Source: Bacteroidaceae bacterium
GTDB lineage: Bacteria; Bacteroidota; Bacteroidia; Bacteroidales; Barnesiellaceae_A
Reading direction: 5' to 3'
NCBI GenBank assembly: GCA_017410245.1
Contig: JAFQRE010000042.1
Span: 69,827-133,826, forward strand
Length of the DNA stretch: 64,000 nt
The notes beneath the pieces were generated by a model, which ran no database searches, was not told the DNA's origin, and saw only the letters and a list, made by a program, of their open reading frames with translations. Shown piece by piece: positions 3,532 through 64,000 of the stretch (the stretch's first letter is position 1; each line of letters opens with the position of its first letter). Made by a program: the position numbers and the translations under genes.

Positions 3532-4461
3532 ATGACGGAAATAGAATCATTTAGAGAAATTTCCTCTCTTTGGAAAGAGGAAAAACGAAAGTATGTAAAA
3601 CTTTCAACCATTTCAGCCTATGCAATTATCCTTGAAAATCATCTTTTACCAACTTTTGGCGATAAGACAAAAGTTATAGAAGAAAATGATGTGCAAGAGT
3701 TTGTTTTTGACAAACTGAATGCAGGGCTAAGTCAAAAATCAGTAAAAGATTTTATGATTGTGCTGAAAATGGTCTATCGTTTTGGTGTAAAAATTGGAGC
3801 AATGGAACATCGTGAATGGGATATAAAATATCCAATTACACAAGAACGGACAAGTATTGAGGTGTTGAGCGTTGCTAATCACCGTAAATTAGTAAACTTT
3901 GTTGCCGAAAATTTCACATTTCGCAATCTCGGAATTTTGCTTTGCCTACATACAGGAATGCGTATCGGCGAAGTTTGTGCTTTGAAATGGGAAGATATTG
4001 ATATAGCACAAGGCATAATCAATGTAAAACGAACCATTGAACGCATTTACATTATTGAAAATGGAGAACGACGAACAGAACTAATCATTTCAACACCTAA
4101 AACGCAAAATTCAATTAGAGAAATACCACTTTCAAAGGAACTCATAAAAGTGATAAAGCCGTTGAAGAAAGTTGTTAATGACACCTTCTTTGTGCTTACT
4201 AACGAAAGCAAGCCTACCGAACCAAGAACATATCGCAATTATTATAAATCGGTTTTACAAAACCTCAAAATTCCTCTCTTGAAATTTCATGGTTTGCGAC
4301 ATAGTTTTGCCACTCGCTGCATTGAAAGCCAATGCGACTATAAAACGGTGAGCGTAATTTTGGGACACGCTAATATAAGCACAACCCTAAACTTATATGT
4401 TCACCCAAACCTTGAACAAAAAAAGCGTTGTATTGACAAGATGACAAAATTATTGAAATAA
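3532..4461 (+). CDS. tyrosine site-specific recombinase (XerC/D-like, shufflon-type)
   Basis: 309 aa. Catalytic-type motifs are HTGMRIGE (Arg), HGLRHSFAT (His-x-x-Arg) and LGHANISTTLNLYVH (His and Tyr). It is divergent from hsdS with a 36-bp spacer. Confidence 0.85.
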   Translation: MTEIESFREISSLWKEEKRKYVKLSTISAYAIILENHLLPTFGDKTKVIEENDVQEFVFDKLNAGLSQKSVKDFMIVLKMVYRFGVKIGAMEHREWDIKYPITQERTSIEVLSVANHRKLVNFVAENFTFRNLGILLCLHTGMRIGEVCALKWEDIDIAQGIINVKRTIERIYIIENGERRTELIISTPKTQNSIREIPLSKELIKVIKPLKKVVNDTFFVLTNESKPTEPRTYRNYYKSVLQNLKIPLLKFHGLRHSFATRCIESQCDYKTVSVILGHANISTTLNLYVHPNLEQKKRCIDKMTKLLK

Positions 4462-56252: not shown

Positions 56253-57371
56253 ATGGAAAAAGCTAAAGTCTATTTTACCAACATGCGCACAACCCCGCAA
56301 AGCAATCTCCTCGACAAGATGGAGCGCCTTGTACGTCGCGCCGGCATAGCCGATATTGACTTCGAAAACAAATTCGCAGCCATCAAGATACACTTTGGAG
56401 AGCCCGGCAATCTGGCCTATTTGCGTCCGCAATATGCAGCCCGTATGGCATCGGTAGTACGATCTTTAGGAGGCCGCCCATTCCTTACCGACTCCAATAC
56501 CCTTTATACCGGCCGTCGTGCCAATGCCGTAGATCACCTGCAGAGCGCTATGGAAAATGGCTATAATCCCATATCGGCCCAGTGTCCGGTCATCATTGCC
56601 GATGGCTTGAAAGGTACCGACTACCGCGAAGTACCCATCGATGGCGAATACTGCAAAACCGCAAAAATAGGTACAGCTATTGTAGATGCCGATATCGTAA
56701 TATCAATGAGTCACTTCAAAGGACACGAGCAAGCCGGATTTGGCGGAGCACTGAAAAACCTCGGTATGGGAGCAGCAAGCCGTGGAGGTAAACTCGAACT
56801 CCACAGCGGCTCACAACCTCGCATCAAAGAACACAAATGCGTAGGTTGCGGTATGTGCGTGCGCAATTGCTCACACGGTGCACTCTCGCTCGTCGATCGC
56901 AAAGCCGTTATCGACTACACACGCTGTGTAGGATGCGGACAGTGTATAGCCATGTGTCAGTACAACGCAGCCGTACCCGGAGCCGACGACACCACCGAAC
57001 GCCTCAACTACAAAATAGCCGAATACACCGTAGCAGTACTCAAGGACAAGCCCCATTTCCATGTCAGTTTCATAGTCGATGTATCGCCCGAGTGCGACTG
57101 CTGGAACCACAACGACGCAGCCATTGTGCCCAACATAGGCATACTCGCTTCGTTCGATCCCGTAGCCCTGGACCAAGCCTGTGCCGACCTCGTTATAGCA
57201 GCACCCGCATTGAAGTCCGACAACATCTTGCATTGCAATCACGACCACGGTACGCTCGAAGGAGAAGACAAATTCCACCTCCTACACCCCGATACCCACT
57301 GGCGTGCCGCCCTCGAGCATGGCGAAAAAATCGGCCTCGGTACCCGAGAGTACGAGTTGATAACAGTCTAG
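56253..57371 (+). CDS. DUF362-type protein with 2x[4Fe-4S] ferredoxin insert
   Basis: CVGCGMCVRNC and CVGCGQCIAMC clusters. Followed by the GC-rich terminator GCGGGGTGCTTCG...CGAAGCACCCCGC at 57396-57432. Confidence 0.75.
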   Translation: MEKAKVYFTNMRTTPQSNLLDKMERLVRRAGIADIDFENKFAAIKIHFGEPGNLAYLRPQYAARMASVVRSLGGRPFLTDSNTLYTGRRANAVDHLQSAMENGYNPISAQCPVIIADGLKGTDYREVPIDGEYCKTAKIGTAIVDADIVISMSHFKGHEQAGFGGALKNLGMGAASRGGKLELHSGSQPRIKEHKCVGCGMCVRNCSHGALSLVDRKAVIDYTRCVGCGQCIAMCQYNAAVPGADDTTERLNYKIAEYTVAVLKDKPHFHVSFIVDVSPECDCWNHNDAAIVPNIGILASFDPVALDQACADLVIAAPALKSDNILHCNHDHGTLEGEDKFHLLHPDTHWRAALEHGEKIGLGTREYELITV

Positions 57372-57725
57372 TAAAAACATACCAATTGGAGTTGGCGCGG
57401 GGTGCTTCGGTTACGAAGCACCCCGCTTTTGTTTCTAAGTGTAATGCCGAGATTTAAGTCGAATGAGAGTCCTGAATATATAACCAAGTCTATTGTGAAT
57501 CACTACAACCTCCCTTAGCAATTGAACATATTACCTTTCATCATTACCACCGCATATATCCCCCTACACGATGATGTATGTGGTGGGTCTATATTATATA
57601 TGTGTGTAGCTGTCTTTGATAAAGGGGCGAAATATTCACGTAAGCTTGTCGGTGTTATCAAACAATGTTGAGACAATTTGCAATCAGATATGTAGGAAAA
57701 GGATTTTTTAACCAATCTATACATG

Positions 57726-57740
57726 GTTACTTGAAAGAAC
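57726..57740. repeat. left arm of a perfect 15-bp inverted repeat, GTTACTTGAAAGAAC
   Basis: Read directly. The reverse complement is at 58007-58021. Confidence 0.8.
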
Positions 57741-57752
57741 CATGCACAATTG

Positions 57753-57760
57753 CAAAGATA
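57753..57760 (-). promoter_or_regulatory. -7 box TATCTTTG on the minus strand inside the invertible segment
   Basis: CAAAGATA on the + strand is TAnnTTTG on the minus strand, 13 nt from the left repeat. It currently points away from the upxY-like operon. Confidence 0.35.
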
Positions 57761-58006
57761 CTAAAATAAACCATAATAAGAACGAATTTCAACACTTTTT
57801 TTGTCCATATTTTATAAAAATATCCCATAGAAATATATAGGCACAGCAATGATAGATATTTATAAATGTTACAGTCAATTATAGTAAAACCTGTATTATT
57901 ATTATTCCTTTTAACTTAATTATATTTTTCAAAATAACCATGTTTTTAAATTTTTGATTTGATGTATTATAAACCACTATCATACAAGATTTTATAAAAA
58001 TAAGTA

Positions 58007-58021
58007 GTTCTTTCAAGTAAC
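58007..58021. repeat. right arm of the 15-bp inverted repeat (GTTCTTTCAAGTAAC)
   Basis: Exact reverse complement of 57726-57740. It ends 26 nt upstream of the upxY-like ATG. Confidence 0.8.
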
Positions 58022-58047
58022 AGTGCACCAAATATTCTCTATTTGCC

Positions 58048-58638
58048 ATGAACGACATAATAGGTAGTACCGAGATATTCAATAAGGAAGGTTCGCTTGT
58101 TACTGTGACAAACGGCCGCGAAGCGTATCCGAGGCGTTGGATTGCAGTCCTCGTTCAGGTAAATTGTGAGAAGAGAATAGCTACCCTTTTAGGCAAAGCA
58201 GGATACGAAACATACATACCTACTCAGCTTGAAGTGCACCAATGGAGCGATCGCAAAAAGAAGGTGCAACGCATCATAATGCCCATGGTGGTTTTTGTAC
58301 GTGCTGCCAAAAATGAAGAAAAATGGTTGCTAAATCAATCATACATACACAAACTCATTGCTCTCCCCGGTAGCAAAGAGGCTATGAACAAGTGTGCAAC
58401 CCCCATACCCGATGCTCAGATAGAGCGTTTGAAGTTCTTGCTCGAAAACGCAGAAACGGAGGTGACCATTGTGAGCAGTCTGAAAGTAGGTGATATGGTG
58501 CGTATTGCTGCAGGTCCGTTGACCGGACTCGAAGGTGTAGTTAGTGTAGCAGAAGATAAGAATACAATTGTGGGTCTACAAATTGATGGGCTTGGCTATG
58601 CCTGTGTTCGTATTCCCATTGACTATTTAACCCGATAA
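58048..58638 (+). CDS. UpxY-family (NusG-like) transcription antiterminator
   Basis: NGN-type N-domain (RRWIAVLVQVNCEKRIATLLGKAGYETYIPTQ...MPMVVFVR) and C-terminal KOW (VGDMVRIAAGPLTGLEGVV). Confidence 0.8.
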   Translation: MNDIIGSTEIFNKEGSLVTVTNGREAYPRRWIAVLVQVNCEKRIATLLGKAGYETYIPTQLEVHQWSDRKKKVQRIIMPMVVFVRAAKNEEKWLLNQSYIHKLIALPGSKEAMNKCATPIPDAQIERLKFLLENAETEVTIVSSLKVGDMVRIAAGPLTGLEGVVSVAEDKNTIVGLQIDGLGYACVRIPIDYLTR

Positions 58639-58647
58639 GAGATAAAT

Positions 58648-59316
58648 ATGAAATTTGCGCTTGACAATGTCTATTGTAATATGACCGACAAGGAACTTGT
58701 CGATCTGTCAATTAAAGGAAATGACGAGGCCATACTATATCTCCTGTATGTGAGATATGAGAAGGACTTGAAGTTTTATGCAATGAGATACTATGATTCG
58801 TTGGAGTATCTTGATGAATTGACCCATGAGCTCTTTATACGACTCAAGGGTACGAATGCCGATTGCAAACCATTGGATAATTTCCAATGGAGGAGTTCGT
58901 TTAGAACTTGGCTCTGCAGAGTCGCATCAAATCTTTTCTTAGAAAAAAGACCCCAAATGATAGGTCTGAATAGTGATAGGAACTCTAATGGTACAAACGA
59001 TGATGATTTATCGAAGCTGCCCGAACCCCAACCTGAGCCGGTTAATGAAAAACTGGTGATGATATTGGAAGCCCTCAATCGAATGGAAGACGATGAGTAT
59101 CGCTTCATTCTCATCAAAGAGCTTGAAGGATACAATCATAAAGAGATTGCCGAGATGCTGGTTGCCAGAAGAGAAAAAAAGAATATAGTAAAATACTATA
59201 ATGGCAATATAGTCGTTCCTGATGCTTCCTCTGTTGATAGGGATAAGGCAAGGGCTATTAATAAACTCAAAGTTATTGTAGAACAGATTAAACAAGAGTG
59301 GTATGGAAATGAGTGA
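58648..59316 (+). CDS. sigma-70 family (ECF-like) RNA polymerase sigma factor
   Basis: Region-2-like THELFIRL...FRTWLCRVASNLFL and region-4-like FILIKELEGYNHKEIAEML with an insert. Confidence 0.7.
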   Translation: MKFALDNVYCNMTDKELVDLSIKGNDEAILYLLYVRYEKDLKFYAMRYYDSLEYLDELTHELFIRLKGTNADCKPLDNFQWRSSFRTWLCRVASNLFLEKRPQMIGLNSDRNSNGTNDDDLSKLPEPQPEPVNEKLVMILEALNRMEDDEYRFILIKELEGYNHKEIAEMLVARREKKNIVKYYNGNIVVPDASSVDRDKARAINKLKVIVEQIKQEWYGNE

Positions 59317-59644
59317 TGAACTGATTGCTTGTTATGTAGAAGGAAAAGTAACTCCAGAGGAGCGAAATTTTGTCAGAAAGTATCTATGTGAGCACCCCGA
59401 GGAATATGAATGTATTCTTAGCTTGATAGATAATGATACTGAAGATTATTTAGGCCAACAACTGCCAATATCGGCCGATTGCATATCGATGAACGAAACG
59501 TCATTCTCCGATATTGCATATTCGGCAGCGGCATTTGCCCCGGAACAAAACAATTTGTCTATTCATAAACCTAAATCAAATTTACCCGATGTAAACGGAA
59601 TATATGATAGGTTGCGTAGATTGAGTGATGAATTAGATAAATGA
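59303..59644 (+). CDS. anti-sigma-factor-like small protein, no TM segment
   Basis: Overlaps the sigma stop by 14 nt. The N-terminus LIACYVEGKVTPEERNFVRKYLCEHPEEYECILSL resembles the zf-HC2 anti-sigma N-domain pattern. Confidence 0.4.
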   Translation: MEMSDELIACYVEGKVTPEERNFVRKYLCEHPEEYECILSLIDNDTEDYLGQQLPISADCISMNETSFSDIAYSAAAFAPEQNNLSIHKPKSNLPDVNGIYDRLRRLSDELDK

Positions 59645-59678
59645 TACTTTTTACAAATTTTTTATTGAGTGAAAAATT

Positions 59679-60014
59679 ATGAAAAAGATTGCGATTTTTG
59701 TAGCTATAGTATTGTCTGTAGGATTGTGTATTTCATGCCGAAATTCATCAAATACCAAACTTTTTGTAGATAAGGCAGTTAAAGAATATCGAGCAGCTAG
59801 TAAAAGTGATGCTGTACGATATTTGAAAACACAAAACAGAATTAACCAAGCAGAAAGATTGATTGATAATTATTACTCATCATCTTCATGCAGTACATGT
59901 AATGGATATGGTGTTGTTTATCAAGTTGATGCATATGGAAACGTAATTACCGACTATTATGGTAATACAATCTACTACTTTTGCCCGACATGTGGAGGAT
60001 CTGGTAATTATTAA
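59679..60014 (+). CDS. exported lipoprotein with two DnaJ-type CxxCxGxG zinc-finger motifs
   Basis: Signal peptide MKKIAIFVAIVLSVGLCISC. C-terminal CSTCNGYG and CPTCGGSG. Confidence 0.6.
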   Translation: MKKIAIFVAIVLSVGLCISCRNSSNTKLFVDKAVKEYRAASKSDAVRYLKTQNRINQAERLIDNYYSSSSCSTCNGYGVVYQVDAYGNVITDYYGNTIYYFCPTCGGSGNY

Positions 60015-60094
60015 AAAATTATTGAAGGTCATGTAAGCATAGAAGAGTGAAACTTCGTCAGACAATATCTATACAAGTCATCGGAGAAATATGA

Positions 60095-60904
60095 ATGAGT
60101 AGTATGCCCTTTACAGAAGGATATAAAATACTGAAGAGTAAGGCCCAACAGGCTGTTATAACAGTGAAAGCCTCTAAATTCTTTCCTAAGATGAAAAGAA
60201 CTACACTTCCGTATGCCTATCCTTGCAAAAACTATTTAGACCCAATACTTTCTAACGAAATAGTTCACTCGGCATTGCAACTATTTGTAGATACCAATTG
60301 TAAAAAACAGATTCAAAATATAAAATCAACCGGACAGTTGGTTACTAAAGATAACTATCCGCAATTTTACAATCTGCTTCAAAGTTGCTACAAATCGTTG
60401 AATGTAGAGGAGGTACCGGAAGTTTATATAACCGGTAAACTGAAAGGAATAAATGCCTTAAGTGTAGGAACAGACTCAGCTCCGCTCATTCTCGTTAGCA
60501 GTAAATCGGTAGTAGGCCTGCCCGAGGGAGAGCTGAAGTTTATGATAGGGCACGAATTGGGGCATATCCTTCAGAAAAATCTGATGTGTCATACGATCAA
60601 AGGACTTTTGGATAACTTAAACAGAAAATCAGATGTTTTCGGGCCTATAGTATCCGATATAATCGAAGTCCCGCTCAATCAGTGGTATAGATGTGCCGAA
60701 TATACAGCCGACCGTGCCGGACTGATATGTTGTGGAAGTATATCGCACGTGAAATCGTTATTCACACGATTGAGCAATAGTGCAATGCGACCCAACAACC
60801 AGATAGAAAAATACTTCGAGTTGAGCAATATACACCCATTGTATAATAGTCGAATAGAAATGCTCGAGCAATTCGTTTTGTCGCAACAAAAAGATATTGT
60901 ATGA
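60095..60904 (+). CDS. M48-family zinc metallopeptidase, no obvious TM segments
   Basis: HEXXH (IGHELGHI) and a downstream glutamate ligand in EYTADRAG. An alternative start is at 60104. Confidence 0.75.
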   Translation: MSSMPFTEGYKILKSKAQQAVITVKASKFFPKMKRTTLPYAYPCKNYLDPILSNEIVHSALQLFVDTNCKKQIQNIKSTGQLVTKDNYPQFYNLLQSCYKSLNVEEVPEVYITGKLKGINALSVGTDSAPLILVSSKSVVGLPEGELKFMIGHELGHILQKNLMCHTIKGLLDNLNRKSDVFGPIVSDIIEVPLNQWYRCAEYTADRAGLICCGSISHVKSLFTRLSNSAMRPNNQIEKYFELSNIHPLYNSRIEMLEQFVLSQQKDIV

Positions 60905-61731
60905 TAAAAAACAAGAAAATATTAAAAGGGTTGAATAACTCGCAATACGAGCACCCATTCGACCAGAAAGCACTACTGGCTCTGCAAAGCACCCCCGGCG
61001 TGGACTTGGTGGGAAACTTCATCGTCAAGCATGCCATCGAGAAAATATATACCGTACAATATACCGGAAGTAACTTGAAGGTAACAAGTCAAAACTATCC
61101 CAAGATATACGAATACCTTCAGTATGCTTGTCAAATCTTAGATTTACCCCGAGTGCCCGAATTGTATATCGAGTGGGGATATAACATAAACGCCTTTACC
61201 GTAGGATCTGAAAATCCTATCATCGTATTGAGTTCGGGTCTAATCGACTTGTGCGACGACGATGAGATAATGTTTGTCATCGGTCATGAGTGTGGCCACA
61301 TCAAGAGCAACCACATGCTCTACCACATGATGGCACAAGCCCTCAACATCTGCATCGATAATATACCCGGTGGAAACTTAGTAGCAGCACCATTGCAGTA
61401 TGCCCTATATTATTGGAATAGAATGTCGGAGTTTACTGCTGACCGTGCCGGATTGCTCAGTTGCCAAAATATGACAGCAGCCATTGGCGCATTTATGAAG
61501 ATGGCCGGTATGCCCATCAAGGAATTCAACAAAATGAATTACCAGACATTCATTCAGCAAGCCATAGACTTCAAGCAACTCGATTACGACGCCATGAGTA
61601 AAGTCATCAAGTTCATATCCATAGCCGATGCTTCGCACCCATGGACCGTAATGCGCGCTGCCGAACTCCTCAAATGGGTCGGCGCCGGTGAGTATGATAG
61701 AATCATCAATACATACCGCGCCTTGAAATAA
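60901..61731 (+). CDS. M48-family zinc metallopeptidase, paralog of the previous gene
   Basis: IGHECGHI and EFTADRAG. ATGA overlap with the upstream gene. Shares PE(V/L)YI and INA(L/F)xVG blocks with its neighbour. Confidence 0.75.
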   Translation: MIKNKKILKGLNNSQYEHPFDQKALLALQSTPGVDLVGNFIVKHAIEKIYTVQYTGSNLKVTSQNYPKIYEYLQYACQILDLPRVPELYIEWGYNINAFTVGSENPIIVLSSGLIDLCDDDEIMFVIGHECGHIKSNHMLYHMMAQALNICIDNIPGGNLVAAPLQYALYYWNRMSEFTADRAGLLSCQNMTAAIGAFMKMAGMPIKEFNKMNYQTFIQQAIDFKQLDYDAMSKVIKFISIADASHPWTVMRAAELLKWVGAGEYDRIINTYRALK

Positions 61732-61842
61732 TTGGCTGGAGGAGGGGTGTATACAAACTAATTAGATGACATGACTATTTTGTATGGATAATTATAGAAA
61801 TTGAAGTTGTAATATATAAGTAACAATTTAAAATAATGCATT

Positions 61843-64000
61843 ATGCCTTTACAGCAACAAATTGAGACAATTATTACAAAGCGCCGTATGAATCAAGGTG
61901 AATTTGTAAGCTATTATGAGAAGACTTCGGCCATTTATGATTTTGTTAATGGAGTAAAGTCCTTTAAGTCAAATCCAGGTTGGCTTACAATGATTAATGA
62001 AAATGAGAAACTTAGGCTTGAGTGGGAAACACTAATAGCAGATGTAAATGAACTTGAACTTTTATTGAAAGATTTAAGTTATGGAGATACAGGTTGTTTG
62101 ATTGAATGTTTGAAAAGAGTAAAACGAGAGTATTTGAACATTGGGTGTATTGGACCTTGGCGTCAAGGTAAAAGTACAGTCATATCTAAACTAACAAATC
62201 TCAGCGATTATATCATACCCCGCTCAAAATATCTTACATGTACTGGTACAACTATAAATGTTTTTAATGGAAACCAAGTTGTTTGGGAAAATAATCAATA
62301 TGTTGAAAAAGACGGCAATAAGGCTGTACTCTATTTCCATTCATTTAATAGCATTTGCAAAACAATAAATGAATATTTAGTACAATTGGGTTTTTCACCA
62401 ATGCCATATGCTTTAACAATTGAGAGCTTTGTGCAGAATTGTTCGAAATGTTATAAAGAAAATAGCTATAAAGCTGGAAATGACACTGAATTGAAGAAGA
62501 TGCTGGATAAATATCTCGTTCATGCAAGTGAATATGCACCTTTGTTAAAGCAGAAAGATGGGCTATCAGAGGAAATTTTGAATCTTTCAAGTATTGAATC
62601 TCAACAAAAACTACGTCCATATGTATCATACTACGAGAAAACAGATGCAGAATATGAGCTTGAAGGTATTACCACTCCAGTCCAAAAGTTTATAGTTTTA
62701 GCAGTAAAAAAGGTTGATATATTTACTCATTTTCTTGTTAATGGTGAAAATGGTCCAGAAGAGGTTGGTAGGATACAATTTGTTGACACCCCTGGTATAG
62801 GTGAAAGCAAACTTGAGGTCGCCGAGACTTTAGCAAATGCGTTAAGGTCCGATTTAGATATTGCTATTTGCCTTCGCAAGGTATCAAATCAAAGTGGAAT
62901 AATCCCGACTGATAGTTCCGATTTTCATAAGGTGCTGAAGCAGAATACCTTTGGAAGAAATCCTGAAAACTGGGTGTTCTATTTATACAATAAAGAAGGT
63001 GATGTGGCTCATGATATTCTTATGACAACATTTTCTGAAGTTAATGGAGATCTCATGAATACACCTGTTCAGGGCAGAAATGTTAATCAAATTATTCCTG
63101 GCATTAAGCTTAAATACACACCACAAGAGCCTAAAGGGAATCACATTGATTTTATTGATGTACAAAGAGAAGAAGAGAAGTTACAAAAATATTTCCTATC
63201 TATTCTTACGGAAATGGCTACAACTATTTCTGTGTCAGATAATGCTTTTTACAATGAAACTCGTGATTTGTACAACAAGGTTTCTAATCTTTACCAAAAT
63301 ATCATTGGTGGAAGTATGAAAACCATATCGCAGTGCTTGCCTACATTTGACGATAGAGAGAAAATCCTTAAGACTATCAAGGCCGTAAACAATATGTGGA
63401 TGGCTAATGTTAAGTGCCCTGAAACTCTCAGCGAAAATATAAATGCAGCATTAGTTGATTTTTATAAGGAGCCATATGGTGTGGTGTTGGCTGAAGTCTT
63501 GGGGCTGTCTCCTGAGAAAATTAAGAAAATGAGTGATGAAATAAAAAAAGTTGAAAATAGTGCTGAATTAAAAATAGGAGAACGTATTGCAAAGAGAAAG
63601 CAGATAGCTTATGATGCTATCTTCCCATTGATACAAAACAAAATAACATCTTTCACAGTAGATGTCTTGGCTGTACATAGTGTATTTGGCGAAGTTTCCG
63701 AAAAATTATCGAACCGGATGAGTGAAAGAGCTGTCCGAATAATTGAAGCTACTGATGCGATAAAGAAACTTGATGACCTAAAAGAGAATTTTTGGCTAGG
63801 GTTTATGAATGAAGGGTTATTAGGTTTTGGTAAAACAGATGTAAATAGCTGGATTAATTATTTCTTAAGTCTTCTTGAAGAAGGAGGTGCTGATTTTGCA
63901 GCTCTACACAATGCTATTGTCAACTTCAAAAATTGTCAATTTGATATTAGGGGTGATATATCAAAGTTTGTCAAGGCTACTATAGAGGAAGTGAGAAAAA
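61843..64000 (+). CDS. dynamin-like large GTPase, 3' end outside the window (at least 719 aa)
   Basis: My own translation from ATG 61843 is stop-free to nt 64000. It is not in the ORF track because no stop is reached. P-loop IGCIGPWRQGKSTVISKL and dynamin-type G3 IQFVDTPGIGE, followed by a long helical region. Confidence 0.7.
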   Translation, partial: MPLQQQIETIITKRRMNQGEFVSYYEKTSAIYDFVNGVKSFKSNPGWLTMINENEKLRLEWETLIADVNELELLLKDLSYGDTGCLIECLKRVKREYLNIGCIGPWRQGKSTVISKLTNLSDYIIPRSKYLTCTGTTINVFNGNQVVWENNQYVEKDGNKAVLYFHSFNSICKTINEYLVQLGFSPMPYALTIESFVQNCSKCYKENSYKAGNDTELKKMLDKYLVHASEYAPLLKQKDGLSEEILNLSSIESQQKLRPYVSYYEKTDAEYELEGITTPVQKFIVLAVKKVDIFTHFLVNGENGPEEVGRIQFVDTPGIGESKLEVAETLANALRSDLDIAICLRKVSNQSGIIPTDSSDFHKVLKQNTFGRNPENWVFYLYNKEGDVAHDILMTTFSEVNGDLMNTPVQGRNVNQIIPGIKLKYTPQEPKGNHIDFIDVQREEEKLQKYFLSILTEMATTISVSDNAFYNETRDLYNKVSNLYQNIIGGSMKTISQCLPTFDDREKILKTIKAVNNMWMANVKCPETLSENINAALVDFYKEPYGVVLAEVLGLSPEKIKKMSDEIKKVENSAELKIGERIAKRKQIAYDAIFPLIQNKITSFTVDVLAVHSVFGEVSEKLSNRMSERAVRIIEATDAIKKLDDLKENFWLGFMNEGLLGFGKTDVNSWINYFLSLLEEGGADFAALHNAIVNFKNCQFDIRGDISKFVKATIEEVRK

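Follow-up and report, generated by a model that had tools for sequence, protein, structure and literature searches.

The analyzed window is a 64,000-nt stretch (G000:C40:69827-133826) of a 2.53-Mb Bacteroidaceae genome, G000, assembled in 46 contigs. Toward its right end, an operon headed by a gene for a UpxY-family antiterminator is preceded by an AT-rich segment bounded by inverted repeats and, further upstream, by a DUF362/4Fe-4S gene whose stop codon lies at 57371. The features of the locus, in window positions, are as follows.

57397 to 57426, plus strand: terminator-like hairpin after the DUF362 gene (13-bp perfect stem, 4-nt loop, then a T-rich run)
57726 to 57740, no strand: left inverted repeat (IR-L), GTTACTTGAAAGAAC, the proposed recombinase core site
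57741 to 58006, no strand: putative invertible segment with the predicted promoter, 266 bp, 21% G+C
57753 to 57760, minus strand: Bacteroides -7 box TATCTTTG, 12 nt inside IR-L, facing away from the operon (OFF)
57925 to 57943, no strand: degenerate internal third repeat copy, in the orientation of IR-R, which lies about 80 nt downstream
58007 to 58021, no strand: right inverted repeat (IR-R), GTTCTTTCAAGTAAC, the exact reverse complement of IR-L
58022 to 58047, plus strand: leader from IR-R to the ATG, 26 nt, with the conserved block ATATTCTCTATTTGCC
58048 to 58638, plus strand: UpxY-family (NusG-like) antiterminator gene (Pfam NusG and KOW), first gene of the putatively switched operon
58648 to 63999, plus strand: co-directional cargo genes, extending past the window end

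A preliminary description of this DNA had reported perfect 15-bp inverted repeats around a 266-bp AT-rich segment that ends 26 nt before a upxY-like ATG, together with a minus-strand -7 consensus directed away from the operon and no operon-facing TAnnTTTG box in the present orientation. This anatomy was reproduced throughout. Both arms are exact, the interior has a G+C content of 21% against 44.7% for the genome, IR-R ends 26 nt upstream of the ATG, and a scan of both strands from the end of the upstream gene (57371) to the UpxY ATG (58048) gave TATCTTTG at 57753-57760 as the sole TAnnTTTG. We read the -33 element as poor, and we read the repeat as the half-sites GTTAC and GTTCT (as AGAAC), which would flank a 5-nt asymmetric core. 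The internal third copy matches IR-L and the flank of IR-L at 15 of 19 positions. The part matched in the flank is the outer one (ACATGGTTA), as if the copy came from an older recombination event. IR-L is itself embedded in a longer dyad, CATGGTT-N9-AACCATG (57723-57745), and IR-R has no such dyad.

The UpxY gene scores 119.4 bits against the NCBIfam model NF033644 (cutoff, 100). Behind it the cargo encodes an ECF-type sigma factor, a 113-amino-acid (aa) protein, a 111-aa CxxCxGxG protein, two M48 peptidases, and a dynamin-like GTPase whose gene runs off the window. Neither upxZ nor polysaccharide biosynthesis genes (no glycosyltransferases) were found among the downstream genes up to the window end, in agreement with the earlier remark that the cargo differs from that of capsule loci. 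PADLOC returned weak matches only (caspase, 39.5 bits, for the protein on contig C1 described below), and we conjecture that the cargo might serve in defense.

Past a point roughly 28 nt beyond the DUF362 stop codon, other strains of the same species have different DNA, so that the putative switch lies within a strain-variable island, about 330 nt from its left edge; the hairpin at 57397-57426 lies at about that edge. Same-genus species representatives share the end of the DUF362 gene only, without the island, and a look-up of the sigma factor found no further contigs. The site after the DUF362 gene (57372-57430) is a strain-variable hotspot, at which at least three different DNA stretches take the place of the island in other strains of the species (L025, L027, L030, L031, L033, and L034).

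Two repeat pairs of one family in the genome

A single perfect 15-bp inverted pair could be due to chance, since about one per genome is expected. With spacers of 50 to 800 nt, 16 perfect inverted repeats of at least 15 bp were counted in the real genome, compared with 0 to 2 in five Markov-1 simulated genomes. Searched at up to one mismatch across the 2.53 Mb, the 15-mer GTTACTTGAAAGAAC occurs just as the 57726/58007 pair. A genome-wide scan for perfect inverted repeats uncovered a second pair of related sequence on contig C1, GTTCTATGAAAGAACCATAAA at C1:82216-82236 and 82351-82371, so that the suggestion to look for the same motif elsewhere in the genome bore fruit. This element (C1:82216-82371, corresponding to L023:6217-6372) has 21-bp perfect arms and a 114-nt spacer, and its interior (24% G+C) differs from the interior of the element on C40. 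The pattern GTT...TGAAAGAAC occurs at exactly four sites in the genome, which form the two inverted pairs (C40 and C1:82216/82357); no further pair of the family was found in the genome at 3 mismatches. Each pair carries a minus-strand TAnnTTTG (TATCTTTG on C40 and TATATTTG on C1) located 12 to 14 nt inside the same arm and facing outward.

The C1 element precedes the gene for a 584-aa protein with caspase (C14), EF-Tu domain 2, and L7/L12 C-terminal-like domains, which is followed by three proteins without a family match. It is in the OFF orientation in 3/3 assemblies, and in the same-genus species only a 130-nt piece upstream of it is conserved. A short way upstream of the putative C1 switch, two genes, one for a Porph_ging/PNGase-like protein and the other for an 870-aa CarboxypepD_reg protein, are flanked by the exact copies of a 134-bp direct repeat (C1:77790-77923 and 81922-82055, 4.1 kb apart). 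The same-genus species have one copy of this repeat, which gave no tRNA or Rfam match.

Miniature inverted-repeat transposable elements (MITEs) are small, AT-rich, and bounded by terminal repeats, and in these respects the segment resembles one. The element might be no switch at all: its repeats could have arisen by chance, terminate a miniature transposable element, or serve as paired operators of a DNA-looping regulator. To this reading we assign very little probability. A transposable element was considered and rejected: allowing up to one mismatch, the genome contains no other copy of the repeat pair; the interior occurs there only once and is unlike that of the other family pair; and the flanks differ (ACATG versus AGTGC), leaving no target-site duplication. 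Chance pairing is ruled out because a second pair of the same family exists in the genome and because the repeat family is conserved at homologous loci, to which we now turn.

Inverted and noninverted segments at homologous UpxY loci

A search with the UpxY protein returned 628 relatives at an E value of ≤1e-30, mostly 69 to 77% identical and mostly metagenomic, and contigs were retrieved for five of them (the P0101, P0054, P0023, P0087, and P0025 sets). Repeats of the GTT-N5-AAAGAAC family were present at the same distance from the ATG in ruminant/gut metagenome contigs whose UpxY proteins are 69 to 72% identical to the one studied here. The promoter-proximal junction and the leader of these homologs are homologous to those of this locus; their leaders are 27 nt long and align over the block CTCTATTxxCxATG.

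The P0101 set (UpxY 69% identical) displays both orientations of one segment. The repeat is TAGTTCCACAAAAGAACT, with the right arm at -42 to -28 from the ATG. In L115, L116, L118, and L120 the 271-nt interior is identical at 271/271 positions (270/271 in L119), and these five contigs are ON, with the box TAATTTTG at -63 of the plus strand. In L117, L121, and L122 the same interior is present as its reverse complement, again at 271/271 identity, so that the box is on the minus strand beside the left repeat (OFF). The P0101 junction TAATTTTGCAAACGGTGCATA/GTTCTTTTGTGGAAC, where the repeat begins with GTTCTTT, is homologous to TATCTTTGCAATTGTGCATG/GTTCTTTCAAGTAAC of the present locus, where it begins likewise, and the two leaders have CTCTATTT-C-ATG in common. 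Both orientations are likewise represented in the P0054 set (72% identical; repeat GTTCCACAAAAGAAC, with 27 nt between the right arm and the ATG). Its 296-nt interior, at 293 to 295/296 identity, runs one way in L091 and L093 and the other way in L092 and L094 to L096, and the short contigs L097 and L098 carry the two alternative right junctions.

The P0023 set has the same repeat family, GTTCTGCCAAAGAAC(A), and is ON in all ten contigs shown: its TATCTTTG box, a plus-strand feature at -64, lies 14 nt inside the right repeat. When the present locus is inverted in silico, it aligns to P0023 through box, repeat, and leader, whereas the locus as assembled aligns in the leader only. Homology to the ON-state boxes of the P0023 and P0101 sets covers the box of the present locus together with its downstream bases. 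It had been proposed that, after inversion, the box would fire into upxY from near the right repeat; the same ON arrangement, with the box 12 to 14 nt inside the repeat, is present at the homologous loci. The position of the box relative to the repeat is alike at both loci of this genome, in P0101, and in P0023; the P0054 set has no perfect -7 box. An intact third repeat copy is found in the P0054 and P0023 sets at the place equivalent to 57925-57943.

We read the element as an inverton mainly because homologous loci with the same repeat family occur inverted. That it is a true member of this family of inverting promoters is very likely. Judged by these alignments, physical inversion of homologs with the same repeat family and the same distance to the ATG leaves the reading that there is no switch close to refuted.

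The P0087 and P0025 sets (L083 to L090 and L112 to L114) have another repeat class, CTAGTAGGAGATG and ATCTCCTAACAGGAGATA, with a 167-nt interior; gene calling in some contigs of this class joins the recombinase open reading frame (ORF) to an ISL3 transposase domain, for a total of 859 aa. P0087 likewise occurs in both orientations, L089 being inverted relative to L083 to L088. As far as these contigs indicate, switching heads before this UpxY clade are general, and the cargo behind them is variable. The P0101 and P0087 cargo includes CAP and VWA proteins; P0054, P0023, and P0025 have genes for 210- to 221-aa and 114- to 116-aa proteins where this island has its sigma factor and 113-aa genes; and M48 peptidases are also found in the P0023 and P0025 sets.

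A search of 400 genomes of the order with the UpxY protein gave relatives at about 35% identity only. Pairs of the 9-bp core TGAAAGAAC were found in 21 other genomes among these 400, compared with about 10 for a control pattern, which is near chance. A scan of species-representative contigs returned one relative at 68% identity, in Bacteroides salyersiae DSM 18765 (NZ_KB905467.1), and no repeat of the GTT-N5-AAAGAAC family was found upstream of it (L050:2420-2850). In B. salyersiae, the upstream region is built differently: TTCTTGTCTCTAAAATCGCCAAATT (28 nt) is directly repeated, and ACTGCACATGGACAATTTT and ACTGCACAAATGAACAATTTT, about 340 nt apart, form an inverted pair made imperfect by one indel and one mismatch. 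The supplementary tables of PMC11892184 contain no matching repeat string.

Candidate recombinases

Every homologous set has a tyrosine recombinase gene (397 to 461 aa) on the same strand that ends at the left repeat; in L122, the TAG stop codon of the gene overlaps the first bases of the repeat. The encoded enzymes have Phage_int_SAM_5 and Phage_integrase domains, with Arm-DNA-bind_5 in addition in P0054 and P0023. At the locus studied here this gene is missing: as the preliminary description had stated, the neighboring genes hold no recombinase, and tblastn of 57372-57760 gave no match to a recombinase remnant. The same description had argued that a trans-acting recombinase would be needed, and the genome does contain a plausible candidate. 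It has nine tyrosine recombinase matches, and no serine recombinase was found in it. One of the nine is an unlinked 398-aa enzyme at C9:8215-9411. Its identity is 77% (389 aa aligned) with the P0101-adjacent enzyme and 67 to 69% with the P0054- and P0023-adjacent ones but only 38 to 39% with the enzymes beside the other repeat class. On the strength of these values, 67 to 77% within the family and 38 to 39% to the other class, recombinase clade tracks repeat family. The C9 protein is identical residue for residue on 13 contigs, including samples with a diverged allele of the island, and its context is constant (RtcB, then the recombinase, then a PD-(D/E)XK nuclease). No repeat of the GTT-N5-AAAGAAC family was found beside it. 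By its sequence, the C9 enzyme is the most likely invertase of the switch at 57726-58021 and probably serves the C1 switch as well.

There is precedent for recombinases that act in trans. In Bacteroides fragilis, BF2766/Tsr19 acts on one local and one distant promoter (PMC4747536), and in P. vulgatus a PS promoter inverts despite a defective neighboring invertase gene (PMC13114119). The same precedents for cross-acting invertases in Bacteroides lend some substance to a different assignment, in which the switch works with another of the nine recombinases: either a 305-aa enzyme on C28, which is 40 to 42% identical to the cognate clade, or a 309-aa enzyme encoded in the window (3532-4461) beside an hsdS shufflon (1738-2837). 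We regard this as improbable, given that clade tracks repeat family in the homologous sets and that both enzymes adjoin unrelated repeats of their own, a 25-bp-repeat inverton (TTCCACTTCTTTTTAAGAGGTGGAA) on C28 and AATCCTTAATTAAAGGGATA at the shufflon.

The C28 element (C28:30852-31155; L024:4853-5156) is a third candidate inverton in this genome. It has 25-bp perfect arms and a 254-nt interior (30% G+C) and lies between the 305-aa tyrosine recombinase gene and the gene for a 1012-aa protein with collagen repeats and DUF4988.

Orientation of this copy and proposed switching

All eight readable assemblies (8/8) carry the locus in the OFF orientation: G000, L018, L019, L020, L022 (right junction), L032 (left junction), and, for the diverged allele, L110 and L111. 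The samples with the locus are gut metagenome assemblies, and the count leaves out 7 further contigs carrying the gene. The strain is represented by the runs SRR12529058 and SRR12529393 and by the samples SAMN15829896, SAMN15829929, and SAMN18818083. No ON-state copy of this exact locus was found in G000 and the 7 other samples, and the JGI metagenome collection yielded 0 matches to the orientation-neutral right junction GTTCTTTCAAGTAACAGTGCACC. The first base of IR-R is also the first base of one contig, L021 (32.7 kb), from sample SAMN15829896. An assembly graph in which both orientations converge would produce such a break, or it could instead reflect poor coverage of the 21% G+C interior; L032, the partner contig of L021 from the same sample, includes 40 nt of the interior, in the OFF direction. 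In the diverged allele (L110 and L111), both arms and the box are intact (IR-L, 15/15), and the interior is identical at 254/268 positions. Retention of the 30 repeat bases at about 5% divergence hints, only weakly, at selection.

These orientation data bear on the main rival to a working switch, namely, that the segment descends from a working inverton but has been locked OFF since the island was acquired without the adjacent recombinase gene, leaving the operon silent or otherwise driven. The uniform OFF state here and on C1, the loss without remnant of a recombinase gene present in every homologous set, and the decay of the internal third copy all fit such a relic. Against it stand an intact recombinase of the matching clade (77% identical) that is conserved across samples, repeat arms that are perfect in two diverged alleles, and the contig that breaks exactly at IR-R. 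Some working invertons, moreover, normally show a strong OFF bias; in cultured B. fragilis, for example, about 1% of IVp-I is ON (PMC4747536). Overall, we consider a locked relic unlikely. Weighing sequence comparisons of this kind, it is reasonably probable that the switch is still live in this genome by way of the orphan C9 recombinase. Taken as a whole, 57726-58021 (296 bp) is likely an inverton of the Bacteroidales tyrosine recombinase type, assembled in its OFF state, with C9 as the likeliest invertase.

A working switch of this type would operate as follows. In the OFF state, the single promoter TATCTTTG would fire leftward into the terminator region at the convergent end of the DUF362 gene, and the UpxY-headed operon would be left without a promoter of its own; the island is probably silent in most cells. 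Recombination between the 15-bp repeats would turn the 266-bp segment so that the box came to lie 12 nt inside the right repeat, with the predicted junctions CTATACATG-GTTACTTGAAAGAAC-TACTTATTT and TTGTGCATG-GTTCTTTCAAGTAAC-AGTGCACC. Transcripts would then presumably start just before the right repeat and run through the repeat and the 26-nt leader, giving a 5′ untranslated region of about 45 to 50 nt that consists of the repeat and the conserved leader, and UpxY would be expressed. The UpxY family has a known role in transcript read-through (PMC11685472). By extension from that role, UpxY, made first, may help the polymerase through the long AT-rich island.

Promoter inversion before upxY is textbook knowledge for capsule loci. 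The present locus shares with the capsular polysaccharide loci of Bacteroides a repeat-bounded segment of 250 to 300 bp with a TAnnTTTG box, a UpxY-family gene first downstream, and, in its homologs, a tyrosine recombinase gene directly upstream. It departs from them in that no recombinase gene is adjacent and that upxZ and glycosyltransferase genes are lacking, its relatives carrying CAP and VWA cargo. The GTTAC half-site is common to the repeats of both (10.1101/2024.11.17.624012; PMC4611039), but the 15-bp repeat here is GTTAC-N5-AGAAC, compared with the published GTTAC-N7-GTAAC. Assignment to that published class, which includes Tsr19, B. thetaiotaomicron CPS, and BT1927 and whose motif we took from the same two sources, was rejected on the basis of the 5-nt spacer and the different second half-site (GTTAC-TTGAA-AGAAC).

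Three other known systems are similar in part. Tsr19/BF2766 (IVp-I and IVp-II; PMC4747536) is a case of one recombinase with more than one promoter, one of them distant, as is proposed here for C9. It also has extra repeat copies between promoter and gene and a strong OFF bias in culture, comparable to the OFF state of this locus in all readable assemblies. Its repeat sequence is different, its cargo consists of EPS and outer membrane proteins, and Tsr19 adjoins one of its targets, whereas the candidate C9 enzyme adjoins neither. The P. vulgatus PS inverton (PMC13114119) is a upxY promoter without a working neighboring recombinase that inverts by means of an enzyme in trans; unlike the present locus, it retains an invertase pseudogene remnant and has polysaccharide cargo. 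The S-layer inverton BT1927 of B. thetaiotaomicron (PMC4611039) is a repeat-flanked promoter element (256 bp) with noncapsule cargo and with recombinases nearby, but its 22-bp repeats belong to the GTTAC-N7-GTAAC class, its cargo consists of surface proteins, and it lacks a UpxY gene.

The kind of element is already known; what is unusual is the repeat subfamily, the proposed arrangement in trans, the second putative switch of the family before a caspase-domain protein, and the noncapsule cargo. The same switch and antiterminator head would here drive cargo that is not surface related but rich in regulators and defense-like; in relatives it stands before other genes. Provided that the switch is live, Bacteroidales phase variation would reach costly intracellular systems. 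Going further, we suggest tentatively, at slightly less than even confidence, that rumen and gut Bacteroidales harbor widespread, undescribed phase-variable accessory islands, each composed of a private recombinase, a matching switch, UpxY, and interchangeable conflict- or defense-like cytoplasmic cargo, and that C9 is the master switch of two unlinked islands in this genome. Its targets would then be the sigma factor/M48/dynamin/kinase island in the window and the caspase-domain island on C1, and the two islands would form a bet-hedging regulon for costly intracellular systems. The pairing of recombinase clade with repeat family is testable, and C9:8215-9411 is a named candidate for the orphan master recombinase. 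The motif GTT-N5-AAAGAAC ending 26 to 27 nt before a UpxY ATG offers a handle for finding such switches in metagenome-assembled genomes.

Downstream of the C9 recombinase gene and on its strand (L124:7700-8215), a directly repeated unit of about 95 nt is present as two tandem copies, each with a TATCTTTG box. They are followed by a small ORF and by genes for the PD-(D/E)XK "REase-ARP" nuclease, an SDR protein, and a nucleotidyltransferase, and several metagenome contigs end within the tandem-repeat region.
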